From Phycisphaerae bacterium (GTDB lineage Bacteria; Planctomycetota; Phycisphaerae; SM23-33), in the NCBI GenBank assembly GCA_016929245.1, contig JAFGJE010000233.1, positions 1,883 to 65,882 of the forward strand: a stretch of DNA of 64,000 nucleotides. The letters are read 5' to 3'. The translations under genes and the position numbers were made by a program. This document shows positions 46,663 through 63,392 of the stretch, one piece after another. The first letter of the stretch is position 1. The number at the start of each line of letters is the position of its first letter. The notes under the pieces were generated by a model that was not told the DNA's origin, did not search any database, and was given only the letters and a program-made list of their open reading frames with translations.

Positions 46663-46669
46663 AAACGTT

Positions 46670-46688
46670 CGCGGGCATCCTGCCCGCG
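46670..46688. repeat. GC hairpin CGCGGGCAUCCUGCCCGCG 8 nt after the kinase stop codon (a near-identical copy lies at 63393-63411)
   Basis: 7-bp perfect stem with a 5-nt loop. No U-tract follows. Differs by one loop base from the hairpin at 63393. Confidence 0.35.
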
Positions 46689-46793
46689 CGTAACGAGTCG
46701 GCGCTCCGCGCGGAAGGAATCTTCCGAAGGGATCCCTGACGGACTTCCCCCCGCGTTTCGATTTAACTTTCCTTGTTGTACAATGGCAACGCC

Positions 46794-47666: not shown

Positions 47667-47702
47667 TGTGGTATTCTGGAGACGTCCTATAGGATTCATT
47701 CC

Positions 47703-48758
47703 ATGATGAAACGTCGAACCGGTTTAACGATCATCGCCTTTCTGCTTGTGGTCGGCGCTTCGGCGCCGTCTCAGACAGCCGACGACGCCAAACGGGCGGA
47801 GGAACTTCGCGAACGATTTCTCCGGACCGTTCAGCCGACAGCCGACCAGGAAGTGCAACTCGACCGGATTTGGCTGACGCATCAACAGGCTTTGGCGAAC
47901 TGGCGACGTGAAAACGACCAGAAACTCCAGGCCGCGCAGAACCTGCAACTCGAAGCGCTAAAGACCGACGATCGCGACACCCTCCAGGCCGTCCGCGGGG
48001 AACTCCTGGCGCTGCTGGAATCCCGGCGACGATTACGGCAGTCGATGATGAACCAGATGGAGGAGGTGCTGACAGAACAGCAGTTCGCCAAAGCCCGAAA
48101 ACTCTTTCGTTCGTCACTCACCGGCGCGGAAACGTTGCGAGTGATGCAACAACTTCAGCTCTCCGACATCCAGAAGACGGAGATGAAGCGGATTCTCGAC
48201 AAGGCAGCCTTGGCATCCCGAAAGGAAGAGAATCCCGCCGACCGCGAGGCGATCATGGACGACGCGCTGGAGACCATCGAGCAAACCGTCCTGAGCGTCC
48301 CGCAGCGAACGGCGCTGCAGCGACGGATCGAGCAAGACCGTCAACAGAAGCGCCGACAGGAAATGCTCGGGAAAATGGAATTCACCGAGGAGCAAAAGGC
48401 GAAAATCCGGGCCATCCTCGCCGAGGCGCGGCAAAAAGCCGAACACGCGAAAACCTCCCCGGAAAAACAGGCCGTCCTCGCCGAAGCGCATCGCGTCATT
48501 CGCCGGGACGTCTGGACCGAAAAACAGCGCGAGCAGTTCACCCTCGCCCAGATCGAACGGCAGTGTCGACAATTGCGAACCCTCGGCCTGTCCGAAGCCC
48601 AGATCGCCCAGGCGGAAAAAATCCTCCTCGACGCCCATGTCAAAGCCCAGGCCGCCCCCCGCGACGAGGAAAAACGTCAAATCCTCCGCGACGCCCACGA
48701 AAAAATCCGCACACAGCTTTTACAAACGAACCAACGGGAACATCCCAACCCCCGATAA
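47703..48758 (+). CDS. periplasmic LTXXQ-motif repeat protein (Spy/CpxP-like)
   Basis: Signal peptide MMKRRTGLTIIAFLLVVGASAPS. At least six LTXXQ-like repeats (LTHQQ, LTEQQ, LSDIQ, FTEEQ, WTEKQ, LSEAQ) in a charged helical protein. Confidence 0.65.
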   Translation: MMKRRTGLTIIAFLLVVGASAPSQTADDAKRAEELRERFLRTVQPTADQEVQLDRIWLTHQQALANWRRENDQKLQAAQNLQLEALKTDDRDTLQAVRGELLALLESRRRLRQSMMNQMEEVLTEQQFAKARKLFRSSLTGAETLRVMQQLQLSDIQKTEMKRILDKAALASRKEENPADREAIMDDALETIEQTVLSVPQRTALQRRIEQDRQQKRRQEMLGKMEFTEEQKAKIRAILAEARQKAEHAKTSPEKQAVLAEAHRVIRRDVWTEKQREQFTLAQIERQCRQLRTLGLSEAQIAQAEKILLDAHVKAQAAPRDEEKRQILRDAHEKIRTQLLQTNQREHPNPR

Positions 48759-48836
48759 GCCCGTCCAAAACTCATTCAAAAAATACTTCGTGAAATTCGT
48801 GTAATTCGTGGACACCCTCCGGGTAGGATAGTCCTC

Positions 48837-49205
48837 ATGATCGCCCTTACGACATGGGAATATCGCCTGCTGCTGATCGCGGCCTTCGTTGCGGCGCTGA
48901 TTATCTCGGCGTTTCGGATGGCCCGGATCGCCGGGCGCATCGGGCGCTCCCGGTGGGTGTGGTTCTTCATCAGTCTGTTCTTTACCGCCATCCCCGCGAC
49001 GGTGGTATTCTGGCACGACCGCATGAAAAGCATCTCCGCCGGGTACTCGCAAAACGACGATGACACAAAATCACCCGGTAAAAAAAAATCCCCAGCCGTC
49101 GCAGGCCGATGCCCGCATTGCGGAGCGATTCTCACCGTCGCCGACCGGGCCGCGGGCAAGTGCCCGCGGTGCAAAATGATCCTGGAAGAAGGACACTACG
49201 CATGA
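48837..49205 (+). CDS. small membrane protein with C-terminal zinc-ribbon (CPHCG...CPRCK)
   Basis: Two predicted TM helices, then a Lys-rich linker and a CxxC-N13-CxxC motif. Stop overlaps the cinA ATG (ATGA). Confidence 0.5.
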   Translation: MIALTTWEYRLLLIAAFVAALIISAFRMARIAGRIGRSRWVWFFISLFFTAIPATVVFWHDRMKSISAGYSQNDDDTKSPGKKKSPAVAGRCPHCGAILTVADRAAGKCPRCKMILEEGHYA

Positions 49206-50455
49206 CGTCTCCCGCGAATCTTCGCGCGCGAATCCTGTCCGTCGGAAATGAACTGACGATGGGCCAGACCGTGGACACCAACAGCGCCTACCTCGCGCAA
49301 CAGTTGGCCGGCGTGGGGATCGAAACCATCGGTCATGAAACCGTCGGCGACAATCAACCCGCGATCGTCCAGGCCCTCCGCCGGGCGGCGGAACTGGCGG
49401 ACGTGGTGATTGTCAGCGGCGGGCTGGGGCCAACCCCCGACGACGTGACCCGCCAGGCGCTTGCCGAAGCAATGGGCGCACCCCTCGAACTCGACGAAGC
49501 AAGCCTGGCGAATATCGAAGCCTATTTCCGCAAGCGCAGCCGCACGATGACACCGAGTAACCGCGTCCAGGCGATGGTTCCCAAAGGCGCCGAACCGCTC
49601 CCCAACACGCGCGGGACGGCCCCGGGGATCGCCGCGAAGCTGGGCGAAGCGCAAGTGTTCGTCCTGCCGGGTGTGCCGTATGAAATGCGGGCGATGTTCG
49701 AGTTCGCCGTCGCGCCGCGATTACCCGCCGGGCGAGGCGTGATTTTGCATCGCATCGTCCGGCTGTTCGGAACCGGCGAATCGAACTTCGCCGAAATGCT
49801 CCGGGATCTGCTGACCGACGCCGGGCCTTTGGTCGTTGGAACGACGGTCGCGGCGGGCTTGGTGTCGATCCGCGTCCATTCCCGCGCCGAGACGCACGAA
49901 CAGGCCGAGCGCCAGGCGCAAAAACGAATCGAGCAGATTCTCCAATGTGTCGGCGAGCGGGCGCTGGGCGTGGGCGAAGAAGCGACGATGGAATCCGCCG
50001 TCGGAGCGCTGCTGCGGAAAACCGGCAAAACCCTCGCGACCGCGGAAAGCTGTACCGGCGGGTTGGTCGGGCAGATGATGACAGCCGTCCCGGGCGCGAG
50101 CGAATATTACCTCGGTGGAGTCGTCTCCTACGCCGACCGCGTGAAGGAAGAACAACTCGGCGTACCCGGCGATGTGCTCCGGCAGCACGGTGCCGTCAGC
50201 GAACCGGTCGCCAAGGCGATGGCTATCGGCGTGCGCGAACGGCTGGGAGCGGATTACGGAATCGCCATAACCGGCATCGCGGGACCGGCCGGAGGAACTG
50301 ACGAAAAACCGGTAGGCCTGGTCTACACCGCCCTGGCAGGTCCAAATGGAACCGCCGTCGAGAAACACCTTCTTTCGGGCGACCGCCCCATGATCCGCCT
50401 GCGAGCCGCCCTGGCGGCTTTAAATCCCCTCCGACTGCAACTGCTGAAACAATAA
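49202..50455 (+). CDS. cinA: competence/damage-inducible protein CinA (MoCF-binding domain plus C-terminal nicotinamide-nucleotide amidohydrolase PncC domain)
   Basis: ...RILSVGNELTMGQTVDTNSAYLAQQL...VVIVSGGLGPTPDDVT... is the N-terminal domain. ...TLATAESCTGGLVGQMMTAVPGASEYYLGGVVSYAD... is the CinA C-terminal domain. The track ORF is 5'-extended by 31 aa. Confidence 0.9.
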   Translation: MTSPANLRARILSVGNELTMGQTVDTNSAYLAQQLAGVGIETIGHETVGDNQPAIVQALRRAAELADVVIVSGGLGPTPDDVTRQALAEAMGAPLELDEASLANIEAYFRKRSRTMTPSNRVQAMVPKGAEPLPNTRGTAPGIAAKLGEAQVFVLPGVPYEMRAMFEFAVAPRLPAGRGVILHRIVRLFGTGESNFAEMLRDLLTDAGPLVVGTTVAAGLVSIRVHSRAETHEQAERQAQKRIEQILQCVGERALGVGEEATMESAVGALLRKTGKTLATAESCTGGLVGQMMTAVPGASEYYLGGVVSYADRVKEEQLGVPGDVLRQHGAVSEPVAKAMAIGVRERLGADYGIAITGIAGPAGGTDEKPVGLVYTALAGPNGTAVEKHLLSGDRPMIRLRAALAALNPLRLQLLKQ

Positions 50456-50512
50456 GGTTCGATAAGAATCCATACTTCGCATCCTGTATTTCACTATGTT
50501 ATTCATTCCATT

Positions 50513-50574
50513 TTCCAACACCGCCAAACGGCAAGCCGATTTGAATATCGGCTTGCCGTTTGGCGGTGTTGGAA
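50513..50574. repeat. conserved palindromic terminator-like element, copy 3 (perfect 25-bp arms)
   Basis: TTCCAACACCGCCAAACGGCAAGCC-gatttgaatatc-GGCTTGCCGTTTGGCGGTGTTGGAA followed by AAAGAGG. Lies 58 bp after the cinA stop. Confidence 0.6.
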
Positions 50575-51081
50575 AAAGAGGAAAATATTATTTTTCAGTC
50601 AACAGGTGTTGAAATGTGCGCAAAAAAAAGGCGACCCAGGTACAGCGGGATCGCCCTCTATTGAAAAAACCGCCTCGCGGGACGGGTTATTGCGGATGGG
50701 GAACGGAAAAGCGCCTTTCGGCGCGCAGTGGTACAGAAAAACGAAACCGTCCTATGTTCAGGGATTCAACCGCCTTCGGTACAACCAACTCTCACCGCCG
50801 GTGCGCCCTCCATAGCCGGTGTCCCTTTCGCCTCCAGAATCAAAAATCGCACGACTGCCCAACGTTTGTGCAATGCAACGGAGAACTCATTATACGCCAA
50901 AAGGGGATTTTGTCAAGGGAACTCATGCAATTCCTCGGAAATGTTCGATAGAAATACGGTAGGGTATCCGCGCCGTTCTCGGCCGGCGGAGGCCTTGTGT
51001 CGTGAATGAACGAGTATTCCGGTTTTGCGCGACGGGTGAGAAAATTCTCGCGCCGGACTGGACTTTTCCCGAAAGCGTGGT

Positions 51082-52518
51082 ATGAGAAACGGTATGGAGA
51101 CCGAACGAGAATCCCGGACGGATCAATCCTCGACGTCCTATCTAGGCCGTCGCGTGCACTTAATCGGTATCGGCGGATCGGGCATGAGGGGCTTGGCGCA
51201 GATGCTGCTCGACGCCGGCGCGGTCGTCAGCGGATCGGATTCCTGCGGGAACGGCTCGCTCCAGCGCCTGCGGGACGCCGGCGCGACGGTGGCTGTGGGC
51301 CAGGCGCCGGAGAATCTTCCCGACGGCTGCGAACTGGTCGTGTACACCGCGGCGGTCAGCGATCAGAATCCCGAACGGATCGCCGCGAAGCGACGCGGGA
51401 TCGAGGTGATCAAGTACGCCGAAATGCTCGGTAGGCTGATGCGGCGGAAGACCGGGCTGGCCGTCGCGGGAACGCACGGAAAGAGCACCACGACCGCGAT
51501 GGTCGCCTATGCCCTTCGCCAGGCCGGCGCGGATCCCAGCTTCATCGTCGGCGCGACGGTGGAACAACTCGGCGGACCCAGCGGCGCCGGCGCGGGCGAA
51601 CACTTCGTAGCCGAGGCCTGCGAGTTCGACCGCAGCTTCCTGAACCTTTCCCCGAAGTACGCCGCCATCCTGAACATCGAGGAAGACCACCTCGACTGCT
51701 ACCGCGACCTCGAGGCGATTATCGAAGCCTTCCGCGCGTTTACGTCCCGCGTCGGTTCCGACGGCGTGTTGATCGCCAACGGCGAGGACCGCAACGTCCT
51801 CGAAGCGACGCGCGACGCGCTGTGTGACGTGGAAACCTTCGGATTCACGGATGACTGTCATTGGCGGGGCGAGGTGCTCGGGGACGATCGAGGCCGGGTG
51901 CATCTGGTGATGTACAAAGCCGGCGAGGAATTTTGTCGCTTCACGGCCTCCTTGCCGGGTATGCACAATGCGTATAATTCCCTGGCGGCGGCGGGGTTGT
52001 TGTACCACGCGGGGTTGAAACCCAGCCAGATCGCCGAACACTTGGCGACCTTCGGCGGGGCGAAACGGCGCATGACGCTAAAAGCCCAGGACGGCGGGAT
52101 CACCGTGGTGGACGATTACGCCCATCATCCCACGGAAATCCAGGCCTCCCTGCGGGCGCTGCGGGATTATTATCGTCCCGAGCGGATGCTGTGCATCTTT
52201 CAGCCGCACCAGCACAGTCGCACCCGGTTTCTGCTGAAGGATTTCGCCGCGAGTTTCGCCCAGGCGGACGAAGTCATCCTGCCGGACATCTATTTCGTCC
52301 GCGACAGCGAAAAGGAAAAGGACCACATTTCCTCGAGTGACCTGGTCGCGCAGATTCGCATGCGCGGCGGGTCGGCGCGATACGAACCGACGTTCGAGGG
52401 AATTCTGGAATATATGAAAACCACACTTCGTGACGGCGACCTGGTGGTGACCATGGGCGCCGGGAACGTATGGGAACTGGCCGATGAACTTGTTCGATGG
52501 ATTCGAGAAGATCGTTAA
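51082..52518 (+). CDS. murC: UDP-N-acetylmuramate--L-alanine ligase MurC
   Basis: ...VHLIGIGGSGMRGLAQMLLDAGAVVSGSD...GTHGKSTTTAM... and colinear Mur ligase domains. Confidence 0.95.
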   Translation: MRNGMETERESRTDQSSTSYLGRRVHLIGIGGSGMRGLAQMLLDAGAVVSGSDSCGNGSLQRLRDAGATVAVGQAPENLPDGCELVVYTAAVSDQNPERIAAKRRGIEVIKYAEMLGRLMRRKTGLAVAGTHGKSTTTAMVAYALRQAGADPSFIVGATVEQLGGPSGAGAGEHFVAEACEFDRSFLNLSPKYAAILNIEEDHLDCYRDLEAIIEAFRAFTSRVGSDGVLIANGEDRNVLEATRDALCDVETFGFTDDCHWRGEVLGDDRGRVHLVMYKAGEEFCRFTASLPGMHNAYNSLAAAGLLYHAGLKPSQIAEHLATFGGAKRRMTLKAQDGGITVVDDYAHHPTEIQASLRALRDYYRPERMLCIFQPHQHSRTRFLLKDFAASFAQADEVILPDIYFVRDSEKEKDHISSSDLVAQIRMRGGSARYEPTFEGILEYMKTTLRDGDLVVTMGAGNVWELADELVRWIREDR

Positions 52519-53362
52519 AGAGAACGAACCCCTGGCGGCTCACACGTGGTTCCGCATCGGCGGGCCCGCGCGGTATTTTATCGAACCCGAAACGTTCGAC
52601 GATCTCTGCCGCGTCGTGAAACGCTGCCGGGAGAACGAAATTCCGATGTACGTCCTGGGCGGTGGGGCGAATCTGCTGGTCGCCGACGCGGGCGTGAAGG
52701 GCGCGGTGATCCGCCTGGCGGGGGAAGAGTTCCAGAAGGTGAAGTTCGACGACGCGAACCTGACCGTCGGCGCCGGCGCGGACATGGGCAAAATCGTCCT
52801 GCGCTGCGTCCGCGAGGGGCGCAGCGGTCTGGAAGGCCTAACGGGCGTGCCCGGTACGGTCGGCGGGTGCGTGCGCATGAACGCCGGCGGCGCGTTCGGC
52901 GACGTCGGTTCGACCATCGAATCCGTGACCGTGATGGACGAGGAGGGTAACACCTTCCAGCGGTTTCGGCCGGATTTGGCGTTCGCGTATCGAAGCACGA
53001 ATATCACCGCGAAGTTCATCCTATCTGCCACCTTCAGCATGGCCGACGACGACCCGCACCGGATCTTAAAGGAGATCAAGCAGATCTGGATGCACAAGAA
53101 GAACACCCAACCCTTAGCGGCCCGCAACGCCGGGTGCGTTTTTAAAAATCCGCGCGGTATGAGCGCCGGGGCGCTGATCGACAAAGCCGGGATGAAAGGG
53201 CGCCGCGTCGGCGGGGCGTACGTGTCGGAAAAACACGCTAATTTCATCCTCGCCGAGAAGGGCGCGACGGCCTTCGACGTGCTGCGACTGATCGATATGA
53301 TCCGCGACGCCGTGGCGCGGGAATTCAACGTGAACCTGGAAAAAGAAATCGAAGTGTGGTGA
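52484..53362 (+). CDS. murB: UDP-N-acetylenolpyruvoylglucosamine reductase MurB
   Basis: ...HTWFRIGGPARYFIEP...VLGGGANLLV... is the FAD-binding domain. ...GAYVSEKHANFIL... is the C-terminal domain. Overlaps the murC 3' end by 35 nt. Confidence 0.9.
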   Translation: MNLFDGFEKIVKENEPLAAHTWFRIGGPARYFIEPETFDDLCRVVKRCRENEIPMYVLGGGANLLVADAGVKGAVIRLAGEEFQKVKFDDANLTVGAGADMGKIVLRCVREGRSGLEGLTGVPGTVGGCVRMNAGGAFGDVGSTIESVTVMDEEGNTFQRFRPDLAFAYRSTNITAKFILSATFSMADDDPHRILKEIKQIWMHKKNTQPLAARNAGCVFKNPRGMSAGALIDKAGMKGRRVGGAYVSEKHANFILAEKGATAFDVLRLIDMIRDAVAREFNVNLEKEIEVW

Positions 53363-53380
53363 GTCGGTTGACGGGTTGAT

Positions 53381-53513
53381 TTGTTAACTGGTTAACTGGA
53401 AAAGCATTACAAATTTTTCTCGCAATAAAAGCTTTGGGAATTTTCCATATTGGTTTGATCATGAATTTCTGTATTTTTTCCCGGTTAACCAATGAACAAA
53501 GTAACCGGTTAAC
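53381..53513. promoter_or_regulatory. AT-rich intergenic region with four GTTAAC palindromes (tandem GTTAACTGGTTAACTGG; inverted GGTTAACC...AACCGGTTAAC) upstream of ddl
   Basis: Motif copies at about 53384, 53391, 53485 and 53508. Sharp GC drop relative to the flanking genes. Confidence 0.3.
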
Positions 53514-53645
53514 AGAATATAGGGTAAAACCTTTACACGGTTATTTCCGATAATAAACTATTAAGAAGCACCGCACGATCAGCCGCGTTGGGCTGCCGGG
53601 AGGAATGCAACGAACGCGTGCGGAAATACGGATGGGGTGATAGAC

Positions 53646-54617
53646 ATGGAAGTCTTTGAGATGACAGAAGCTGTGAAACGAGAGCTGTACGACATCACGG
53701 TGTTGATGGGAGGTCCGTCCAAAGAACGCGAGGTGAGTTTACTCAGCGGCGCCGCTGTCGCCAAAGCCCTGCAGGAAGCGGGTCATAAGGTCACGCGGGC
53801 CGACATCACCCCGCGGGACACCTCCGCGCTGGACCGTCCGGGTATGGACATCGCGTTTATCGCCCTGCACGGGGAGTTCGGCGAGTCCGGCGAGCTTCAA
53901 CAACTCTGCGAGGAGCGGGGTGTGCGATATACCGGTTCCCCGCCGCGCGCCAGCCGGCTGGGCATGGACAAAGCCGCCACCAAGCAACTCCTCCTTCGCT
54001 CCGACATCCACACGCCCGAATGGATGATTATCGAAAAATTTCACTCCCGCAAGGACGTGGATCGCTGGGTGAAGGAAATCGACCCGCCCGTGGTCGTCAA
54101 ACCCGTCAACGACGGTTCCAGCCTGGACGTGTACATCTGCCCCGACGCCGCCGGCCGGAATGAAGCCCTGGAAGAACTACTGGACACCTATGGCCGGGCG
54201 ATGCTCGAAGAGTATGTCGAAGGCAGGGAACTGACCGTCGGCATCCTCGGCAGGGCGGCGCTGCCGATTATTGAAATCGTCCCCTCGCGGAAATTCTTCG
54301 ATTACAAAGCCAAATACGCCGACGACTCCGGCACGGAATATATCATCAATCCGAATCTGCCCGACGACGTCGCCCGACGCGTGAAGGTCGACGCGATCAA
54401 GGCCCACGACATTCTCGGCTGTCGGGATTTTTCGCGCGTGGACTTCATTCTCGATCACGAAAACGTTCCGCAATTCCTGGAGATCAACACGATTCCGGGA
54501 TTCACGAGTCACTCCCTCGTGCCGATGGCCGCCCGCCAGTTGGGCATCGGTATGCCCGACCTGTGCGATCGGATCGTCCGCATGGCGATGGAACGACAAA
54601 TGTGCCCCAGCGCGTAA
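53646..54617 (+). CDS. ddl: D-alanine--D-alanine ligase
   Basis: ...ITVLMGGPSKEREVSLLSGAAVAKAL... then the ATP-grasp core ...ELTVGILG.... The track ORF starts at a GTG at 53637. The ATG at 53646 or 53661 is more likely. Confidence 0.9.
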   Translation: MEVFEMTEAVKRELYDITVLMGGPSKEREVSLLSGAAVAKALQEAGHKVTRADITPRDTSALDRPGMDIAFIALHGEFGESGELQQLCEERGVRYTGSPPRASRLGMDKAATKQLLLRSDIHTPEWMIIEKFHSRKDVDRWVKEIDPPVVVKPVNDGSSLDVYICPDAAGRNEALEELLDTYGRAMLEEYVEGRELTVGILGRAALPIIEIVPSRKFFDYKAKYADDSGTEYIINPNLPDDVARRVKVDAIKAHDILGCRDFSRVDFILDHENVPQFLEINTIPGFTSHSLVPMAARQLGIGMPDLCDRIVRMAMERQMCPSA

Positions 54618-54696
54618 GACGCTTCTCACGTTACTTTCCACCCATATCGGATACCCGGCGCTTTATTCTTTTCGTGTTGGTTTTTATGATACTTCC

Positions 54697-55854
54697 ATGA
54701 CCGACGACAAAAATCCGTCCGCGACGGATGCTTTCCATTCCCCCGTCGTGGATCGCGTTCGGAATGATCCCGAACCGAATCGCTGGATTCTCCCGCGGGG
54801 GGAATTGGTTTTACCGCGCGTGTTCGGATTCTGCCGCGGGGTGAAACGCGCCTTGGCGCTGGCGGCCCGCGCGACCGATGAACACGCGCGTCGCGTCGCG
54901 CCAGGTCGACTGGTTCTGCTGGGGGAGATCATCCACAATCCCTGGGTCAACGCCTACTTCCAAAATCGCGGCGTGACCATTCTGACCCGCCCGCAACGGC
55001 AGGACGTTGAAGAACATGTCACGAGCGAAGATTGCGCGATTATCCCCGCGTTCGGCGTGCCGTTGCCCATCGAGCGACGCCTGCGCGACATCGGCTGTCA
55101 GATCGTGGACTGCACCTGCGGCGACGTGCGACGCTTATGGACCTGGAGCGAGCAGGCGGCCCGCGACGGATACGGCGTGATCGTGTTCGGCCGTTCGGAG
55201 CACGACGAAACCGTCGTGACGAAAAGTCGCCTCACCGAAGCGGGCGGGGTGTATCTGGTGCTCGAGACCCTTCCGCAGGTGGAAACATTTGGAACCATGC
55301 TCCGCAATGGAGTCCGTGACGCGGAATTTCAGGCGTCGTTTTCCCCCTCGACCACGAACGCCGAGAGTATGAAGGCCTTTGAGACGCTCGCCCAGGTCAG
55401 CCAGACGACCATGCTTTATCATCACACCCAGCGCGTGCGGGAGATTCTCACAGCCGCGTACTCTGCCCGTTTTGGGGAGACGGCGGCGGAACGACTGCGA
55501 TTTCAACCCACCGTCTGCCGTGCCACGCAGGACCGGCAGGACGCTGCCGTCGAGTTGTGTCAGTCCCGGTGCGATCTGGTGATCGTCGTGGGGGGATTCG
55601 GTTCGTCCAACACGCGCCACCTGCACGAACTGGCCCGCCGGTACGCGCCGGCGTATCTCATCGAAAACGCCGAAGCGATCCAGTCGGCGGAGCAGCTGCA
55701 GGCCTACAACCGTCAAGCCGACGCCGCCGAAACGATCCGCGACTGGTTGCCGAATAAGCGACCCCTTCACGTCGGTCTGCTGGCCGGCGCGTCCAGCCCG
55801 GAAATCGTCATCGGACAGGTGCTCCAGCGCCTCGCGGAATTCCTCACCCATTGA
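54697..55854 (+). CDS. ispH: 4-hydroxy-3-methylbut-2-enyl diphosphate reductase IspH/LytB (with insertions, 385 aa)
   Basis: Three Cys-containing motifs typical of IspH (...FGFCRGVKRAL..., ...DCTCGDVRRLW..., ...VVGGFGSSNTRHL...) and ...IIHNPWV.... Confidence 0.85.
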   Translation: MTDDKNPSATDAFHSPVVDRVRNDPEPNRWILPRGELVLPRVFGFCRGVKRALALAARATDEHARRVAPGRLVLLGEIIHNPWVNAYFQNRGVTILTRPQRQDVEEHVTSEDCAIIPAFGVPLPIERRLRDIGCQIVDCTCGDVRRLWTWSEQAARDGYGVIVFGRSEHDETVVTKSRLTEAGGVYLVLETLPQVETFGTMLRNGVRDAEFQASFSPSTTNAESMKAFETLAQVSQTTMLYHHTQRVREILTAAYSARFGETAAERLRFQPTVCRATQDRQDAAVELCQSRCDLVIVVGGFGSSNTRHLHELARRYAPAYLIENAEAIQSAEQLQAYNRQADAAETIRDWLPNKRPLHVGLLAGASSPEIVIGQVLQRLAEFLTH

Positions 55855-55866
55855 GCAAAAGTCAAT

Positions 55867-56835
55867 TTATTCCCAGATCACATCCCCAGCCGGGAATACC
55901 GGGCCGTCGGTGCAGCAGAGTTTATACGACCAGCCTTGTTCGCCGGCGTCGCGGATTTTCACCACGCAGGACTGGCAGGTGCCCATACCGCAGGCCATGT
56001 GACGCTCGAGCGAGAGGTAACATTCGATATCCCGCGCGATGCAGATTTCACCCACGCGCCGCATCATGACTTCCGGGCCGCAGGAATAGACGACCAGTTG
56101 ATTCCCGGCTGCAGCGCCTGAATCCAGCCATTGCTCGAACGCCTGGGTGATGAATCCTTTGACGCCCAACGAACCGTCGTCGGTGGTCAAAACCGTTGGT
56201 GTCTCAGCCTGGGCGAATTCCGCTGTGCAAAGGGTGGGCGTTCCATCCGTCGCCGCCGGCTGGACGCCTTTCGCCAACGGCAGCAATTCCCTGCTTCGCG
56301 CCCCGCAGAAGGCTGTCGCTTTTTTCCCCGCCTCCTGAAGCGCGTGAGCGAGATAGATCATCGGCGGAATTCCCACGCCTCCACCGACCAGCGCGGCGGC
56401 GGGTTTGGCGTCGATGATCGGCAGGGGATGTCCTAACGGACCGAGAACGGACAGCTCCTGTCCCGCCCGGACATTCGCCAGCCGGCGCGTTCCCGCACCG
56501 ACCGTGCGGTAGAGGATTTCCAGTTCCACCGCGCCCGCGTCGTCGCGGCGTCCCGCCAGCGACAAAGGCCTGCGCAGCAGCGGTTCGGTTCCCATAAGTT
56601 CCGGCTGGGTGAATTGCGGCGGTTTATTTTCGGGCCAATCGACGACGGCTGCGCCGAGTTGCGGCGCGGGGGGACGACACTGCAACTGCACGAACTGCCC
56701 CGCCCGACTGGGCGGAAACTCCGTCAATCGCAGCCGTAAGCGATAATGCTCATCACAAACGGCGTCGTTGGCAGCCACCGTCGCTACATACACACCCCGC
56801 GAGGATAAGGTTTCATTGCACATGATCCGCATCAT
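55867..56835 (-). CDS. FAD/NAD(P)-binding oxidoreductase with C-terminal 2Fe-2S cluster (PyrK-like dihydroorotate dehydrogenase electron-transfer subunit family)
   Basis: Ferredoxin-reductase-like fold. C-terminal Cys cluster ...CGMGTCQSCVV.... Confidence 0.7.
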   Translation of the reverse strand: MMRIMCNETLSSRGVYVATVAANDAVCDEHYRLRLRLTEFPPSRAGQFVQLQCRPPAPQLGAAVVDWPENKPPQFTQPELMGTEPLLRRPLSLAGRRDDAGAVELEILYRTVGAGTRRLANVRAGQELSVLGPLGHPLPIIDAKPAAALVGGGVGIPPMIYLAHALQEAGKKATAFCGARSRELLPLAKGVQPAATDGTPTLCTAEFAQAETPTVLTTDDGSLGVKGFITQAFEQWLDSGAAAGNQLVVYSCGPEVMMRRVGEICIARDIECYLSLERHMACGMGTCQSCVVKIRDAGEQGWSYKLCCTDGPVFPAGDVIWE

Positions 56836-56956
56836 ACCAAAGACAATATGACTTTGCGCGGTGGGAATCTTTTCACTCCGCGCATTTACTCAAGAATTAA
56901 TCTCGACAGTCGGGTGCCGTGGTTCGCGGAGCGCAGCGGAGCAACCACGGCACCCT

Positions 56957-58006
56957 TTAATGACGCACGGTGGCGGTGGCTGCCAGTCCCAGATCGGAAG
57001 TCCGCCCCGCCTGGAGATAGTGATACCCCAATCCGGCGATCATAGCCGCGTTGTCGGTGCAGTATTTCAAAGGAGGACGTCGCAATGTGCAGCCGAGTTT
57101 CTTCGCCAGTGTTTCCGCGGCCGCGCGCAGGGCGGAGTTGGCCGCCACGCCGCCGCCCAGGAGAATCGTCTTCGCGCCGGTCTGTTGGACGGCCCGTCGG
57201 ATTTTCGTCGTCAGCACCTCCACGACCGCCTGCTGAAAGCTCGCGGCGATGTCGTGAATTTCCTGCCGCGAAAAATGCTCCAGCCCGCGCGGATGATCGT
57301 ATTGCATACCCGGCACGCCGTTGACGTGGTACAGCACGGCTGTCTTGATTCCGCTGAAACTGAAATCCAGCGATTGCCCTTTCAAGAGCGTTCGCGGAAA
57401 ACGAACCGCGGCGGGATCGCCTTCTTTCGCGGCCCGGTCGATCACGGGCCCACCGGGGTATCCCAGTTGCAGAATACTGGCGACCTTGTCGAATGCCTCC
57501 CCGGCGGCGTCGTCGATGGTCGTGCCGAGAAGGTTCATCTCGATCGGCCCGGTGCAATGATACAGGGACGTGTGTCCGCCGCTGGCGATCAGCGCCACGG
57601 CGGGGTAGTTGATGGGTTCCTCGTCCAGCGCCGGCGCGCAGGCGTGGGCGTAGACGTGGTTGACGCCCACGAGCGGAACGTCCCAGACCCACGCGAGCGT
57701 CTTGGCGGCCATCAGCCCCACCAGCAGCGACCCGATCAATCCCGGCTGATGCGTCACCGCGACGGCGGAGATGTCCCCGGGATCCACGCCGCCGGCCTGC
57801 AGCGCCTCGGCGATGACGGAATTGATCTGCTCCACGTGGGCGCGGGACGCCAGTTCCGGAACGACCCCGCCGAAACGGGTGTGCAGGTCGATCTGACTGG
57901 CGACGGCGTTGGCGAGCACCTCGCGTCCGTCGCGCACCAGGGCGCAGGCGGCTTCGTCGCAACTGCTTTCCACCCCCAGGAGAATCGTATGGTTTGGAGG
58001 TGTCAT
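56957..58006 (-). CDS. tsaD: tRNA N6-adenosine threonylcarbamoyltransferase TsaD (Kae1/YgjD)
   Basis: ...ILLGVESSCDEAACALV...NHVYAHA...SGGHTSLY...VSGGVAANSALR... are all TsaD hallmarks. Overlapping 499-aa and 378-aa track ORFs are rejected. Confidence 0.95.
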   Translation of the reverse strand: MTPPNHTILLGVESSCDEAACALVRDGREVLANAVASQIDLHTRFGGVVPELASRAHVEQINSVIAEALQAGGVDPGDISAVAVTHQPGLIGSLLVGLMAAKTLAWVWDVPLVGVNHVYAHACAPALDEEPINYPAVALIASGGHTSLYHCTGPIEMNLLGTTIDDAAGEAFDKVASILQLGYPGGPVIDRAAKEGDPAAVRFPRTLLKGQSLDFSFSGIKTAVLYHVNGVPGMQYDHPRGLEHFSRQEIHDIAASFQQAVVEVLTTKIRRAVQQTGAKTILLGGGVAANSALRAAAETLAKKLGCTLRRPPLKYCTDNAAMIAGLGYHYLQAGRTSDLGLAATATVRH

Positions 58007-59418
58007 TTCGTGTTTTTATCATCCGTTTTCGCGCGGCGTTCCTGTTGCTCCAGTTTTTTGCGATACGCCTCCTCGGCGCGACGATTCTTCGCCGCCAGGG
58101 CGTCGAGAATCGCTTCCATGTCCCTGGGTTTGTTCAGCAGCGCCTCGGCCATCATCAGTTGCGGGTCGGCGTTCCAGGCCCGGGGCGGCGGGGAAGATTG
58201 TGTCGCCGGACGCGTCGTCGAGGATTTCTCCGGGCGCGGCAGGACGCATAATTCCCGGCGCCGTTTTCGGATGGCTGTCGCCTGGTCGTCGCGGAGTTTC
58301 AGCGTCACCTGTGGAGCGACGCCCCATTCCTTCGCGCCGCGTCGTCGCTGGATCGGCTGATCCGGCGGGACGAGGAACTCCGCGGTCGTCAGATGGATCT
58401 GCCCCAGCTCATTCGGCAGGCGGATCATGGTCTGCACGCACCCCTTGCCGCGCGTTCGCCGGCCCAGAAGAACCGCCCGGGTGTTGGCCGCCAGCGCCCC
58501 GGCGACGATCTCCGCCGCGGACGTGGTTTTCTCGTCGATCAGCACGACCATCGGCACGTCGGCGTAGGGGGTGTCGGCGTGGGCGCGATGCGTTTGCCGT
58601 TCCTCGTCCCGCGCCAGAACATGCACGATCGAACCGTCGCGAAGGAACAGGTCCGCCACAGCCACCCCGTCGGACAACACCCCGCCGGGATTGTCGCGCA
58701 GGTCCAGAACGATCCCGTGAATCTCCCCCAGGCTCCGAAGGACGTTTCCCAATTGCCGGGCGGTGTCGGAGCAGAATTCGGGAATCCGCAGGTAGTACAC
58801 CCCGACTTTTTCCCCCAGCCGATACTGCCACATCCCCGTCGCGTCGCGCTGCAGGCCTTGCACGGTCTCGACGGGATACGCTTCGGGCGTCAGCCGCACC
58901 GGTCGCGATTGGCCGGTGTCGGCGTCCAGAATCGTCAACGCGACGCTTTGACCCTTCCGCGGCGAAAGGAAGGAACGAATCTCTTTCGGCGCGAGGGTTT
59001 GAATCGCCTTCTCGTTGATGGCCGTGACGCGGTCGCCGCGAAACAGCCGGGCCTTGTGGGCCGGGGAATCGGGCCGCGGGCCGAGGATGAGAAGCCCTTT
59101 CTCGTCGAGCGTCCATTCCAGTCCCAGATCCCGCCCGGCCCCCAGAATGCGGTCCGTCAGCGCCTGGGCGTTTTCGTGCGATACATACGTGGAGAATTCA
59201 TCGAGCCTGCCTACCATCCCACGAACGGCGGATCGCTGGAGTTCCTTCGCGTCGACGGGTTGATAATACTGCTCGCGGATCACGCGGTACGTCTGCTCGA
59301 CCGGCCCGAATTCGCCCCGCCCGCCGACGCGCGGCACGCGGGGCTGGCGCCAGACCAGCAGCAGCACAGCCGCCATCGCCAGCAGGATCGCGATCCAGAT
59401 AAGGTTTCGTCTCGGCAT
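58003..59418 (-). CDS. carboxy-terminal processing protease (S41 family, CtpA/Prc-like) with PDZ domain
   Basis: N-terminal TM anchor. ...LDLRDNPGGVLSDGVAVADLF... plus ...EKTTSAAEIVAGAL...RTRGKG... is the S41 catalytic Ser/Lys region. Confidence 0.85.
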   Translation of the reverse strand: MPRRNLIWIAILLAMAAVLLLVWRQPRVPRVGGRGEFGPVEQTYRVIREQYYQPVDAKELQRSAVRGMVGRLDEFSTYVSHENAQALTDRILGAGRDLGLEWTLDEKGLLILGPRPDSPAHKARLFRGDRVTAINEKAIQTLAPKEIRSFLSPRKGQSVALTILDADTGQSRPVRLTPEAYPVETVQGLQRDATGMWQYRLGEKVGVYYLRIPEFCSDTARQLGNVLRSLGEIHGIVLDLRDNPGGVLSDGVAVADLFLRDGSIVHVLARDEERQTHRAHADTPYADVPMVVLIDEKTTSAAEIVAGALAANTRAVLLGRRTRGKGCVQTMIRLPNELGQIHLTTAEFLVPPDQPIQRRRGAKEWGVAPQVTLKLRDDQATAIRKRRRELCVLPRPEKSSTTRPATQSSPPPRAWNADPQLMMAEALLNKPRDMEAILDALAAKNRRAEEAYRKKLEQQERRAKTDDKNTK

Positions 59419-59646
59419 GGGAGGGAAGTTCCTGTAGGAAGGATGCTAGCAAAAAGCCCCCCAATGGGCAAGTTGCGCCACAATCTGTTTTTTGACCACA
59501 GAGGCACAGGGGACACAGAGTCAAGAAGGCAGAAGATAGAAGCTGGGAGTTAGAATTCGTCCGCTTATTCAGAGCTCAATATGAAGCTCCCGGCTTCTAA
59601 CTTCTTGTTTTCCTCCGTGATCTCTGTGCCTCTGTGGTTAAAGTTT

Positions 59647-61056
59647 TTATTGCGGCGCGTGCATGTACCCCGGGGCCGCCTGCACGAAGCGGGTGCATTC
59701 CGGGCGGAAGACCAGGTCCACGATCCCCGTCGGGCCGTTTCGCTGTTTTTCGATTATCAATTTCGTCAGGCCCGTCGCTTCGTAGGTGTCCTCACCGCGG
59801 TGATAATAATCCTCGTTGTGCAGCAGCGCCACGACGTCGGCGTCCTGCTCGATCGATCCCGATTCCCGCAGGTCGCTCATGCGCGGCACGTGCGTGGGGC
59901 GGTCGGCTGGGCCTCGGTTGAGCTGGGCCGCCAGCACCACCGGGATATCCAGTTCGCGCGCCAGGGCCTTCATCGAACGGCTCATCGTGGCGATCTGTTC
60001 CTGGCGGTTGTCCGCCCGGCCGTAATAGGTCATCAACTGAAGATAGTCGATAAACACCGCCTGGATGTCGAATTGGCTTTTCATGCGCCGGGCTTTGGCG
60101 CGAAGTTGCAGCGGGGTCAGCGTGGAGGAATCGTCGATCAGCAGCGGCGCCTGCTCCAGCGCTCCCGCGGCCGTCTGAAGCTCCGTCCAGTCCTCCGGGG
60201 AAATCGTCGTCCGGCGCAGATTCCGCAGATTGAATTGCGCATGGCTGGCGAGCAGTCGCTGGGTAACCTGCATCTTGGACATTTCCAGCGAGAAAAACGC
60301 GATGGGCCGTTTGTCCACCACGGACATGTATTCGGAAATGTTCAGCAGCAGCGCGGTTTTGCCCATGGAAGGCCGAGCCGCCAGGATGATCATTTCGCCG
60401 CGCTGGAACCCAGCCGTCAGTTCATCCAGTTGCGTGAACCCGGTCGCCAGGCCGGTGATGGCTTTGCCTTCGTGCTCCTGGAGAAGCTCGAACGTCGAAT
60501 GCAGCAGTTCCTTCAGGCTGGTCGTTTCTCCGGTGATCTGCTGCTGGGCGATCTCGAAGATCTGCTGCTCCGCGCGGTCGACGACGGCCTGGGCTTCGTC
60601 GGGCGAGTCGTAGGCCTCCTCCAGGATATCCCGGCTGACGCGAATCAGGCTTCGCAGAAGGGCCTTGTCGCGGACGATGGCGGCGTAGTATTCGACGTTG
60701 CTTACCCCCGGCACGCCTTCGGCGACGGTGACGAGATACTCCACGCCCCCGACGGCATCGAGCTGTTTCGTGCGTTCCAGTTCCGCGCGCAGGGAGACCA
60801 GGTCGATGGGTTTACCCCGGTCGCGCATCGTCAGGAGGGTGTCGTAGAGGATCACGTGCGCTGGGCAGTGGAAGTATTCGCTTCGGAGAAACTGCACGAC
60901 GACGTCGATGCAGACGGCGTCGAGGATCATCGCACCCAGGACGCAGGCTTCGGCTTCCACGGAACTGGGCACGACGCGGGCCAGTTCGTCGTCGAGGCGC
61001 ACCGGAGCCCGATCCGATGTGTATTGCCCAGTCGATTGGATGTCCATAGCCATCAA
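59647..61056 (-). CDS. dnaB: replicative DNA helicase DnaB
   Basis: N-terminal ...SVEAEACVLGAMILD.... Walker A ...ARPSMGKTALLLNI.... RecA-like C-terminal domain. The antisense 558-aa track ORF is rejected. Confidence 0.95.
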   Translation of the reverse strand: MMAMDIQSTGQYTSDRAPVRLDDELARVVPSSVEAEACVLGAMILDAVCIDVVVQFLRSEYFHCPAHVILYDTLLTMRDRGKPIDLVSLRAELERTKQLDAVGGVEYLVTVAEGVPGVSNVEYYAAIVRDKALLRSLIRVSRDILEEAYDSPDEAQAVVDRAEQQIFEIAQQQITGETTSLKELLHSTFELLQEHEGKAITGLATGFTQLDELTAGFQRGEMIILAARPSMGKTALLLNISEYMSVVDKRPIAFFSLEMSKMQVTQRLLASHAQFNLRNLRRTTISPEDWTELQTAAGALEQAPLLIDDSSTLTPLQLRAKARRMKSQFDIQAVFIDYLQLMTYYGRADNRQEQIATMSRSMKALARELDIPVVLAAQLNRGPADRPTHVPRMSDLRESGSIEQDADVVALLHNEDYYHRGEDTYEATGLTKLIIEKQRNGPTGIVDLVFRPECTRFVQAAPGYMHAPQ

Positions 61057-61245
61057 GCGCCCTCCGTAGCATCAACATTCCGTCGGATCAGCCATTCCCT
61101 CGTGGACGTCACCGGCGGGGAGATTTCTCTTTTGTTGTTATTGAACGAAGACACTACGATATTCGCATCCGACGAAAATTGCAAGAACTCCATAGTCCAT
61201 CGCGGGAAGAAAGTGAGTGAGAATCTCTATTGTGAGTACCCTATA

Positions 61246-61341
61246 CTGTCATCCTGAGCGGAGCGAAGCGGAGTCGAAAGACCTTACGCCCACCTACCCG
61301 TGAGGTCCTTCGACTCCGCTGCGCTCCGCTCAGGATGACAG
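61246..61341. repeat. large palindromic repeat element, copy 2 (CTGTCATCCTGAGCGGAGCGAAGCGGAGTCGAA ... TTCGACTCCGCTGCGCTCCGCTCAGGATGACAG)
   Basis: 33-bp arms with one mismatch around a ~30-nt centre. Same TGTCATCCTGAGCG termini as the element at 3105-3227. Sits in the divergent dnaB / DUF721 intergenic region. Confidence 0.6.
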
Positions 61342-61491
61342 CGAGAACGCGTTAATCCTTCCTGGCGATTCCATTTACGCTTTCTTCTTGACCGTGCCGA
61401 TATTTCTGATATCCTCCCTTCCTGAGCAGTTCGGGCGGTTGGAACGGGTTGTTTTTCGTGAAACCCCCGTTATTTTCGGGAGACGCCTGTC

Positions 61492-61875
61492 ATGGACGAC
61501 GCACAACTTCAGACCATCTGGCAGCAGCGACGGGTGGATTCCGGCGCGACTCCGCTGGGGGCGGTTCTGGGTGCGTTCATGAAGCATCACCTCGGCCGGC
61601 GCGTCAAACAGTTGAGCGAACTGGCGATTCTCTGGGACGAAATCATCCCCGCCGACCTTCGTCGCCACACCGCGCTGGACCATTTTCAACGCGGGGTATT
61701 GACGGTGATGGTGGACTCTGCCTCCCATCGTTTCCAATTGCAAACCCTTCTGCGCGACGGATTGCTTAAGGCGATTCGGCAACGATTCACCGGCGCGTTG
61801 GATCGAATCCGCCTTGTTCCGGGGCAATTCTACACCGTCGACGCGGAAACCGGCCGACAACGCTACGAAGTGTAA
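61492..61875 (+). CDS. DUF721-domain protein (DciA-like putative replicative-helicase loader)
   Basis: ...AILWDEIIPADLRRHTALDHFQRGVLTVMVDSASHRFQLQTLLRDGLLKAIRQRF...DRIRL matches the DUF721 consensus (W.EvvG...a.ht.p..l.dGvL.V.vdSs.w..eL...). The antisense track ORF 61375-62007 is rejected. Confidence 0.6.
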   Translation: MDDAQLQTIWQQRRVDSGATPLGAVLGAFMKHHLGRRVKQLSELAILWDEIIPADLRRHTALDHFQRGVLTVMVDSASHRFQLQTLLRDGLLKAIRQRFTGALDRIRLVPGQFYTVDAETGRQRYEV

Positions 61876-61893
61876 GGAACGAGACGTTTTTCC

Positions 61894-61949
61894 AAACAGC
61901 GCCGCGCGGCAAGCCGATATCGATATCGGCTTACCGCGCGGCGCTGTTG
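61894..61949. repeat. conserved palindromic terminator-like element, copy 4 (variant arms CAGCGCCGCGCGGCAAGCC / GGCTTACCGCGCGGCGCTG)
   Basis: Same architecture, 12-nt loop GATATCGATATC, and trailing GTTGAAAAAA. Lies 19 bp after the DUF721 gene stop. Confidence 0.55.
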
Positions 61950-62178
61950 AAAAAATACCTCGTCGTCCCTGAAAAAGTCGTTTATGCGGCGGAAGGCGCC
62001 AGCGCAAAAGAAAGCAGCCGCGGCAGCTTTAGGGGGTTAATCTGGGGACACCATGGAATGGTCCGAGGTTAAGCGAATTGGGGTGATAAAGAAGATTTTC
62101 TTTTACGGCGAAATGAGTGGAAAACACTTAGAGCCTGTCCCCCGTTAATCCGCAGAAAACGAGATTTCCCCATATTTC

Positions 62179-62218
62179 GTTTAGGAAACCGATGCTCTAT
62201 CCTGCTGAGCTACCGGGG
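62179..62218 (-). pseudogene. partial inverted copy of the tRNA-Arg(CCT) 5' half (positions ~2-41)
   Basis: The reverse complement reads CCCCGGTAGCTCAGCAGGATAGAGCATCGGTTTCCTAAAC. This is 40/40 identical to the tRNA at 39436 up to the anticodon stem, then diverges. Confidence 0.6.
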
Positions 62219-62352
62219 CGGGTTTCTTCGTAACAATATGTTGAAGCAAGAAAGATACCACGATCTGACGGGAAATTACATCAGGAAAATCCTGCCGGCC
62301 GGTTTATGACTCTAGTAAAGATCAAATCGTAACGGGAAATGGGGAATTACAG

Positions 62353-62736
62353 ATGCCGTATTGTCAGGTAAAGGCCCGGGCGGTAAAATATTCGTGGCGA
62401 ACCGGCGGAAAGGATCCAACCGTGACCACGCAAAAATTACTTCAGGAGATTAAAACACGACTCCTCGAAACTCATGGCCGGCGTTTGCGCGGTGTGGTTT
62501 TGTATGGTTCCGAAGTACGCGGTGACGCCGGGCTTGATAGCGACGTCGATGTGTTGGTGCTTCTGGATGATCCCATCGACTATGGCCGGGATTTGGAAAC
62601 CAACCTGGATGCTCTGTATTCTCTTTCGCTGGAACTCGGGCGACGAATCAGCGCGAAGCCCGTATCGGCCCGGCAATATGAAACGATCGATTGTCCACTC
62701 TATCGGGAAGCACATCGGGAAGGTGTTGCGGCATGA
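62353..62736 (+). CDS. nucleotidyltransferase-domain protein (MNT-type antitoxin)
   Basis: ...LRGVVLYGSEVRGDAGLDSDVDVLVLLDD... is the minimal nucleotidyltransferase motif (GS-x9-13-DxD). Confidence 0.8.
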   Translation: MPYCQVKARAVKYSWRTGGKDPTVTTQKLLQEIKTRLLETHGRRLRGVVLYGSEVRGDAGLDSDVDVLVLLDDPIDYGRDLETNLDALYSLSLELGRRISAKPVSARQYETIDCPLYREAHREGVAA

Positions 62737-63116
62737 AGGAATTCGCCGCCGTGGAATGGGATCGCGCACAACGGACATTGGACTCCGCCCGACACCTTTT
62801 GGACACCGATTCTGACTCATCGGCATCATGGGCATACTATGCGGCATTTCATGCTCTCACCGCCTTGTTCGGATTGCGAGGCCAAACCTTCACAAAACAT
62901 TCGGCTCTTCGCGCCGCTCTTCATCGGGACTTGATTCAACAGGGAATCATCGAAAAAAAATTGGGCAAAGATTACGACTACCTGATGGACCTTCGCGAAA
63001 CGGGAGACTACGGGGGTGTTACACAAGTTTCCGAGGAAGATGCGCAACGGGCCATCGTAAAAGCTCAACTTGTTATCAATGCCGTTGCCGCTGCTTGTCC
63101 AGATGTAATGAAGTAG
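62733..63116 (+). CDS. HEPN-domain protein (toxin partner of the MNT gene)
   Basis: MKEFAAVEWDRAQRTLDSARHLL...SASWAYYAAFHALTALF... is an all-alpha HEPN-like fold. Start overlaps the MNT stop (ATGA). The track ORF is extended upstream to 62691. Confidence 0.7.
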   Translation: MKEFAAVEWDRAQRTLDSARHLLDTDSDSSASWAYYAAFHALTALFGLRGQTFTKHSALRAALHRDLIQQGIIEKKLGKDYDYLMDLRETGDYGGVTQVSEEDAQRAIVKAQLVINAVAAACPDVMK

Positions 63117-63372: not shown

Positions 63373-63392
63373 ATTAGAATGATAGATCGTGT

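Follow-up and report, generated by a model that had tools for sequence, protein, structure and literature searches.

An inversion of about 22.7 kb, as read from the sequence, is bounded by an intact tRNA-Arg(CCU) gene and an inverted copy of its 5' half in a 64,000-nt stretch of DNA from an uncultured Phycisphaerae bacterium (contig JAFGJE010000233.1, positions 1,883 to 65,882; the whole stretch is hereafter called the window). Two independent lines of evidence support this chromosomal inversion: the gene order of relatives, and an insertion sequence (IS) whose two ends now lie at opposite junctions. The half copy stands next to an overlapping pair of genes for a nucleotidyltransferase and a HEPN protein (MNT/HEPN), and a first-pass annotation of the same DNA had read the fragment as the usual scar of tRNA-targeted integration. 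We propose that the half-tRNA is probably the scar at one junction of the inversion and the stump of a second tRNA-Arg(CCU) copy. Of the earlier suggestion of an ancient integration followed by inversion or decay, the inversion stands, based on synteny and on the split IS; the integration scar does not, since the pair departs from the published signature of such islands. The mobile element that is involved at the junctions belongs to the IS5 family and was absent from the first-pass annotation. Collectively, the site is an ordinary rearrangement scar, composed of a dead IS5 element, a repetitive extragenic palindromic (REP) palindrome and a truncated tRNA copy, and presents no new mechanism or system.

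Gene order and the split insertion sequence

In locus L085, whose DciA is 77% identical to that of the window, the genes for DciA, the phosphorylase PNP_UDP_1 (PNP) and, further on, a PQQ propeller protein and PurH follow one another on a single strand. The step from DciA to PNP, with a gap of 37–100 nt and no tRNA, is found in L085, in L094/L095 (77%) and in the outgroup L092/L093 (64%), where the order is dnaN-DciA-PNP, near dnaA. Because the adjacency is shared by these five relatives' loci, including the outgroup, it is ancestral. In the window, this adjacency is broken. DciA is oriented as in L085 and adjoins the half-tRNA, and PNP adjoins the intact tRNA; PurH, the PQQ protein and PNP occupy 30.4–38.6 kb on the opposite strand, 23 kb away. 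A synteny comparison, which the first-pass annotation had recommended as a check for an inversion bounded by the tRNA copies, thus supports one. Moreover, the PNP-proximal part of the ancestral spacer is kept up to about position 38699, including a block conserved in the alignment (CGCCTTGCA...GTTTCATAATC), and on the DciA side about 10 nt are kept after the stop codon (61876–61887), followed by the REP palindrome. These remnants on both sides indicate that the ancestral DciA-PNP spacer was opened at essentially one point.

The segment between the two tRNA copies encodes DAHP synthase, a hybrid histidine kinase, CinA, MurC, MurB, Ddl, IspH, TsaD, an S41 protease and DnaB, together with one open reading frame (ORF) that has no Pfam match (47703–48758). 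Its gene content is collinear with the core genes of relatives, and its GC content of about 0.6 is like that of the rest of the window. These housekeeping genes agree with the earlier statement that the interval holds core genes and is not a simple island. The closest relative by DnaB is 87% identical. Collinearity with the closest relative genome and with L088 runs from 46.6 down to 39.59 kb and ends exactly at the stop codon of the TPR/RpoA-CTD gene, which in those genomes is not followed by a tRNA. The closest relative genome has likewise broken the DciA-PNP adjacency. In addition, we considered whether the ancestral neighbours of dnaB lie beside the intact tRNA. This was ruled out, as the BamD-like and LptE-like genes that neighbour dnaB in L002 have no counterpart in the window.

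The second line of evidence is the IS, of which a decayed transposase gene occupies part of the ~830 nt that separate PNP from the intact tRNA. Its left terminal repeat, AAGTCGTCCCTGAA at 38747–38760, matches the ends of the IS5-family element ISGlo4 (NF033578; NC_010815.1, 17239–18567) at 13 of 14 positions. The transposase gene starts with the ATG at 38870, and residues 1–56 are fused to residues ~277–298, which are followed by a frameshift and then by residues 305–327, possibly reaching ~340. In a tblastn search with the ISGlo4 transposase, residues 1–56, 277–298 and 305–327 map to 38870–39194, which implies an internal deletion of 660 nt. Similarly, the NF033578 profile matches at positions 2–48 (E 4.6e-14) and, in another frame, at positions 298–331 (E 2.4e-4). 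The element resembles ISGlo4 in its GNPYDGHTL core, in its N-terminus (54% identity over residues 1–56) and in its terminal repeat. In contrast to ISGlo4, the element of the window is dead: in addition to the deletion and the frameshift, its C-terminus is barely recognisable and its parts lie 23 kb apart.

The core of the terminal repeat, GTCGTCCCTGAA, has exactly two copies in the 64 kb, one at 38749 and one at 61962–61973, both on the plus strand, and by BLAST 61962–61976 is a 15-nt exact match to 38749–38763. At this right end, the interior of the IS lies to the right of the core, and the outer edge is flush with the REP palindrome, which suggests that the IS was inserted beside the REP. 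The terminal inverted repeat of ISGlo4 is TAGTCGTCCCTGAA, and the core stands on opposite strands at the two ends of that element. In the window, the inversion has left the two ends in direct orientation, and their outer flanks are the two halves of the DciA-PNP spacer. Furthermore, the two parts (484 and 217 nt) and the 660-nt deletion add up to about one IS (1469 nt for ISGlo4), and neither a second IS5 copy nor the missing part of the transposase was found in the window by tblastn and NCBIfam. With 39477–62178 un-inverted, the genes regain their ancestral order and the DciA-PNP spacer contains the IS with its ends facing each other. Collectively, one breakpoint of the inversion lies within the IS beside the REP and the other at the tRNA-Arg locus, with the two tRNA copies exactly at the junctions.

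Chromosomal inversions with breakpoints in insertion sequences or repeated genes are well known in bacteria. Similar to such inversions, a core segment has been inverted here, one breakpoint lies in an IS, and short inverted repeats stand at the junctions. In contrast, a single IS was cut internally, rather than two inverted IS copies recombining, and the inverted sequence shared by the junctions comes from a tRNA, as a 40-nt 5' half, and not from an IS or an rrn operon.

The two copies of the tRNA-Arg(CCU) 5' half

ARAGORN and Rfam call a single tRNA in the window, tRNA-Arg(CCU), which has an A1-U72 acceptor pair and is sited at the left junction of the inversion; the half copy is sited at the right junction. 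The first-pass annotation had noticed that 40 nt of the 5' half of this gene recur on the opposite strand at 62179–62218, and BLAST confirms an inverted identity of 40/40 with 39437–39476. A 36-mer from the 5' half has two exact matches in the window, at 39441–39476 (plus strand) and 62179–62214 (minus strand), with 0.00 matches expected from shuffled sequences. In JGI metagenomes, the same 36-mer is found only within three intact tRNA-Arg(CCT) genes. These belong to other organisms and are unlike the window gene in their T arms and flanks. The 40-mer is therefore not a dispersed repeat, a possibility that the first-pass annotation had raised. No match to the 36-mer, as a possible attP, was found in viral contigs. 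The 5' half of tRNA-Arg(CCU) is strongly conserved across taxa; since it is near-invariant, the 40-nt identity alone is no sign of a recent duplication within the genome.

Read on the minus strand, the half copy comprises the 5' strand of the acceptor stem, the D arm, the 5' stem and loop of the anticodon arm and two further bases. The identity of the two copies ends within the 3' strand of the anticodon stem, after ...CCTAAAC, and they show no similarity 3' of position 41. At position 1, the intact gene has A and the half copy has G; a natural tRNA-Arg(CCU) with G1.U72 is present in L083. The 5' flanks of the two copies are similar weakly but non-randomly, with 18/40 right-anchored matches (p about 0.013), and are not identical. 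The tRNA-like 5' flank of its own and the G1/A1 difference fit a second gene copy that was truncated, and fit a bare att core less well. A search across the window for the tRNA 3' half, allowing up to 3 mismatches, found no other copy, and the half-tRNA is not called as a tRNA by ARAGORN, or by Rfam even at E ≤ 10. Stretch U, which separates the intact tRNA from the IS 5' part (Table 1), shows no detectable IS, tRNA or other homology. Similarly, the spacer on the other side has no similarity to relatives or to the rest of the window except at the IS end, and its 75–100 nt closest to the half-tRNA are unassigned.

Table 1. Features at and between the two junctions (positions in the window)
Feature	Coordinates	Strand	Basis or remark
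PNP_UDP_1 (phosphorylase) gene	37729..38604	-	PF01048; tblastx to L085 79%
5' part of decayed IS5-family IS	38747..39236	+	NCBIfam NF033578; tblastn ISGlo4; terminal repeat
AT-rich stretch U, from IS 5' part to intact tRNA	39237..39435	+	Now the 5' flank of the intact tRNA
Intact tRNA-Arg(CCU/CCT) gene	39436..39509	+	ARAGORN; Rfam RF00005, 70.9 bits
Repeat copy R, tRNA positions 2-41 within the intact gene	39437..39476	+	40/40 vs 62179-62218
Inverted segment, 22,702 nt, TPR/RpoA-CTD via MurC-MurB-Ddl-IspH-TsaD-DnaB to DciA	39477..62178		
DciA gene	61492..61875	+	PF05258
REP-like perfect palindrome, 13 nt past the DciA stop, flush with the IS end	61888..61955		
Spacer adjoining the half-tRNA, the other IS end	61960..62178	-	Terminal repeat at outer edge
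R', truncated tRNA-Arg(CCU) 5' half, positions 1-41, G at 1	62179..62219	-	
Own 5' flank of the half-tRNA	62220..62260	-	Weakly resembles the intact gene's 5' flank
MNT/HEPN two-gene cassette, candidate type VII toxin-antitoxin	62422..63116	+	Pfam

Favoured history and competing explanations

The history that we favour agrees with the orientation and full identity of the copies, with their differing flanks and with the split IS. The data show that an IS5-family element had inserted at one point of the DciA-PNP spacer, beside the REP palindrome. A later inversion broke this IS near transposase residue 340 and had its second breakpoint at a tRNA-Arg(CCU) locus; it brought DciA, with the IS 3' end, next to the half-tRNA and left PNP, with the IS 5' part, next to the intact tRNA. 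Two tRNA-Arg(CCU) 5' regions may once have stood in tandem next to MNT/HEPN. The lost copy, with G1 and its own tRNA-type 5' flank, would have been located just upstream of the surviving copy, and the same illegitimate inversion might have cut it at position ~41 and joined it to the IS interior, with the loss of its 3' half. The 40/40 identity would have been kept because tRNA 5' halves are near-invariant and both copies were under selection until the inversion. The half-tRNA is proposed to have no function of its own, and MNT/HEPN to be an unrelated cassette in a rearrangement-prone gap. Two related ideas were rejected. A staggered-break origin of the 40-nt duplication predicts that tRNA position 2 directly abuts the IS edge; the intact tRNA and the IS edge are set apart by 204 nt of unrelated DNA, and the 5' flanks are not identical, so this model does not hold. 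The sequence AATATGG at both internal IS edges, considered as a target duplication, is not significant (p 0.06).

Several observations weigh against this history. Traces of the transposase C-terminus on the minus strand of the spacer are collinear and weak (KRKSSLSP, E 0.86; NPLKLPRLLSFAL, E 16), with a stop codon 5 nt ahead of the terminal repeat, and an NCBIfam profile search of the spacer fragments was negative; given these weak matches and the negative search, the terminal repeat alone is firm for the right IS end. The rebuilt IS has no clear target-site duplication at its flanks, which read ...GCGCGAGGA before the left repeat and GAGGTATT... after the right repeat, with GAGG on both sides offset by two bases. 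In relatives, no tRNA-Arg stands beside the TPR/RpoA-CTD gene or the DUF3887 gene of the right flank, and the latter has other neighbours there than in the window. The ancestral state of the tRNA side is for these reasons inferred only, and no un-inverted relative bearing the IS was among the loci compared. Additionally, a search beside the IS 5' part gave no remnant of the lost tRNA 3' half, and none of the three foreign tRNA-Arg loci shows tRNA-Arg genes in tandem. Finally, the connectivity across the 40-nt repeat comes from one metagenome-assembled genome (MAG), and independent Logan contigs of the same strain, identical in sequence, stop at or near both tRNA copies.

The last point is also the main argument for an assembly artefact, in which the wrong flanks would have been joined across the 40-nt inverted repeat, although the partial copy itself would exist: the window derives from a metagenome-assembled contig of 67,427 nt, and the same-strain contigs that break at or near both repeat copies were built with k=31. 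However, a 40-nt repeat is shorter than the final k-mers of the usual metagenome assemblers or the reads, and the contigs of the sister MAG are named k87_, suggesting k=87. Moreover, A1 and U72 pair perfectly in the assembled intact gene, and the closest relative has also lost the DciA-PNP adjacency, so the region rearranges. We therefore see only a slim chance of a misassembly.

Homologous recombination between pre-existing inverted 40-bp tRNA repeats, possibly reversible, would give the same end state as the favoured history, and the data cannot separate the two. Before such a flip, the half-tRNA and a 204-nt flank would have been located inside the IS between DciA and PNP, and an intact tRNA with G1.U72 next to MNT/HEPN. 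The repeats, 40/40 identical, lie exactly at both junctions, un-inverting exactly between them rebuilds the IS with correctly facing ends, and a tRNA-Arg(CCU) with G1.U72 occurs naturally in L083. However, this explanation requires an unexplained earlier placing of the tRNA 5' half and its flank in the transposase gene, and the AATATGG shared by the internal IS edges lacks significance (p 0.06). A length of 40 bp is, furthermore, near the lower limit for efficient RecA-dependent recombination. On balance, we regard recombination between the repeats as unlikely. A further step, to which we give little credence, would make the two inverted 5' halves a RecA-mediated switch that flips the 22.7-kb origin-proximal segment. 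If true, each flip would join one tRNA-Arg(CCU) 3' half alternately to two 5' halves with different promoter regions and different bases at position 1 (A1-U72 or G1.U72). The segment carries dnaB, murC-murB-ddl, ispH and tsaD, and the tRNA-Arg(CCU) may be the only one of the cell; both orientations would coexist in the population, tuning AGG decoding or the replication orientation of the segment.

The Islander signature of a tRNA-targeted island requires that the interval contain an integrase, that the fragment come from an end of the tRNA gene (tDNA) and share its orientation, and that the length be 2–200 kb, with a 5' fragment located upstream of the tDNA or a 3' fragment downstream of it (PMC4383910). 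In that collection, 3760/3919 islands have 3' fragments and 159/3919 have 5' fragments, opposite-orientation pairs of tDNA and fragment serve as the false-positive control, and the anticodon loop is a known sublocation of integrase crossover (PMC4383910). The pair in the window is similar in that a full tRNA gene and an end fragment (5' end, tRNA positions 1/2–41), ending at the anticodon region, are found in one replicon at a distance of 22.7 kb, within the length range. In contrast to known islands, the fragment is a 5' half, as in 4% of them, the gene is on the plus strand and the fragment on the minus strand, and the 5' fragment is located 22.7 kb downstream of the 3' end of the gene. The interval contains housekeeping genes rather than island DNA, and the junctions hold the halves of an IS rather than att-flanked island DNA. 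Annotation of the ORFs of at least 100 aa between the copies, except two small ones (~110 aa; 48720–49052 and 50616–50951), and in the flanks (35.9–42 and 61.5–64 kb) revealed no integrase or recombinase; the first ~36 kb of the window lay outside it. The flanks at 35.9–39.3 and 62.3–64 kb carry a restriction-modification (R-M) pair, PNP, IS debris, MNT/HEPN and the DUF3887 gene. An inverted 5' half does not fit the usual scar, in which a 3' fragment shares the orientation of the gene and the interval includes an integrase. Based on integrase, orientation, configuration and gene content, the tRNA pair is most likely not a tRNA-targeted island scar.

Spelled out, the idea of an integration scar is that an MNT/HEPN element entered tRNA-Arg by an integrase through a 5'-half att site, and that inversion and decay followed; we consider it very improbable. 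In its favour, the fragment includes a true end of the gene and breaks off in the anticodon stem, 5' fragments do occur (159/3919 islands; PMC4383910), tRNA-Arg(CCT) is possibly a target elsewhere (a candidate integrase-looking ORF in L082), GC falls to 0.51–0.54 around 62–63.5 kb, and the source contig runs ~3.4 kb past the window. However, in addition to the lack of an integrase among the annotated ORFs between and beside the copies, and to an orientation and a downstream position that are both at odds with the Islander filters, the fragment and the gene would, when un-inverted, lie 204 nt apart or be separated by IS debris. Furthermore, the L008 homologue of MNT/HEPN lies between REP-like repeats without any piece of a tRNA, viral contigs do not carry the 36-mer, and the mobile DNA that is present at both junctions is the IS.

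Group I introns of bacterial tRNA genes sit near the anticodon loop, which is close to where the identity of the two copies stops. In such a scheme, the locus would be a tRNA-Arg gene that is split or contains an intron, or else a small RNA running from the tRNA 5' half to a terminator formed by the REP. The 40 perfectly conserved nucleotides, the tRNA-like 5' flank and a REP hairpin with a T-run 223 nt downstream would suit a functional RNA. However, at E ≤ 1 and E ≤ 10 Rfam detects no tRNA, group I intron or other credible family in 61950–62360, the 3' half is not found in the window, an IS end lies in the downstream sequence, and no homologous locus is present in any collection searched. 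The region downstream of the half-tRNA folds strongly (z −6.4), and this is due wholly to the REP palindrome at 61888–61955; the half-tRNA and spacer without the REP fold no better than shuffled sequences (z −0.09 and −0.8). Rfam, ARAGORN, the 3'-half search and the folding all gave negative results for an intron-containing or split tRNA or a small RNA, and we find such an RNA barely credible.

The favoured history, in which the half-tRNA marks an inversion junction, also carries a caution. A tRNA fragment beside a toxin-antitoxin pair resembles an island boundary, yet here it marks an inversion junction, and such a site would mislead automated island detection as well as inspection by eye. 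This locus offers a cleanly resolved case from an uncultured member of the Phycisphaerae, in which the gene order around replication genes (dnaN-DciA-PNP and dnaB) has been reshuffled.

The MNT/HEPN cassette and other features of the region

As the first-pass annotation described, an overlapping nucleotidyltransferase/HEPN pair stands next to the fragment. The nucleotidyltransferase (NTP_transf_2, PF01909, E 6e-8) is encoded by an ORF at 62353–62736, for which a GTG at 62422, matching the L008 homologue, is the likelier start, and the HEPN protein (PF05168, E 2e-17) is encoded at 62733–63116; the two overlap by ATGA at 62733–62736. The cassette matches PDC-S09 of PADLOC (E 5e-26). Against the MntA equivalog of NCBIfam, the nucleotidyltransferase scores 30.2 bits, below the cut-off of 60, and the HEPN protein has no NCBIfam or PADLOC match. 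In MntA/HepT systems of type VII, the antitoxin AMPylates the toxin, which is an RNase. The pair in the window is similar to these systems in that a small nucleotidyltransferase gene overlaps a HEPN gene by ATGA and in its patchy occurrence among relatives. It differs in that its HEPN protein is of the PF05168 type, without the family matches mentioned above, and in that its nucleotidyltransferase lies below the MntA cut-off. By eye, the HEPN protein has R88-ETGD-Y93 (R88-x4-Y93) where HEPN RNases have Rx4-6H, as does the L008 homologue, and a separate R49-x6-H56 is present. The predicted toxin may thus be atypical or inactive.

The sole homologue of the pair among the fetched loci is that of L008, with 81% and 65% amino acid identity, and no tRNA piece lies beside it. 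In L008, the pair is bracketed by ~56-nt REP-like (palindromic) direct repeats at 1543–1600 and 2419–2476, which suggests that such toxin-antitoxin pairs move as small repeat-flanked cassettes. Because its homologue lacks an adjacent tRNA piece, MNT/HEPN behaves as a free-standing, lineage-specific cassette that is mechanistically unconnected to the tRNA fragment, and the earlier reading of the pair as a sign of a mobile island is not upheld. The GC content of 0.51–0.54 around 62–63.5 kb is lower than that of the window. Downstream, the leader of the DUF3887 gene (63343–63460; gene from 63498) shows a promoter-like TTGTCT-18-TATAAT followed by two tandem hairpins with 9-bp stems, both with the centre GCATCTTGC, and then a run of eight T. 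This arrangement could be a terminator or attenuator; it is not conserved in L090 or L091.

DciA, a member of the DnaB-loader family PF05258, is divergent from dnaB only in this genome (59647–61875). In relatives, dnaN-DciA-PNP is located near dnaA, and dnaB is located beside BamD-like and LptE-like genes. The dnaB-DciA pairing of the window is a rearrangement product and not conserved synteny. Between dnaB and DciA, an inverted repeat with 43-nt arms (CTGTCATCCTGAGCGGAGCG...) occupies 61246–61341, and a related element lies upstream of DciA in the closest relative (L086, 211–350), where the neighbour is tRNA-Ser rather than dnaB. This repeat marks another synteny breakpoint. Additionally, tRNA-Gln(TTG) lies ~5.5 kb upstream of dnaB at a constant distance in ~20 Phycisphaerae relatives (L004–L039); here, where the synteny is broken, the equivalent site would fall beyond the window.

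The REP palindrome at 61888–61955 is one of four dispersed, near-perfect palindromes of a single family, with arms of ~30 nt, located at 30274–30340, 35516–35582, 50511–50577 and 61889–61955. These elements are REP-like or similar to bidirectional terminators, and each lies 13–56 nt past a stop codon. In another organism, tRNA-Arg(CCT) with the same 5' half is found at 2340–2500 of L082, and an ORF ~160 nt downstream has an N-terminus that looks like a P4-type integrase; this locus could be a classical 3'-side island.

Finally, a ~2-kb cassette at 35678–37790, with a GC content of ~43.5% compared with ~60%, contains a complete Type II R-M pair, composed of a restriction endonuclease gene at 35959–36687 on the plus strand (PADLOC REase_II, E 5e-48) and a Dam-type methyltransferase gene at 36687–37598 on the minus strand. 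The cassette is bracketed by 62-nt direct repeats that are 97% identical (35678–35739 and 37729–37790) and duplicate the 3' end of the PNP_UDP_1 gene. The R-M unit looks like an insertion with a long target duplication.

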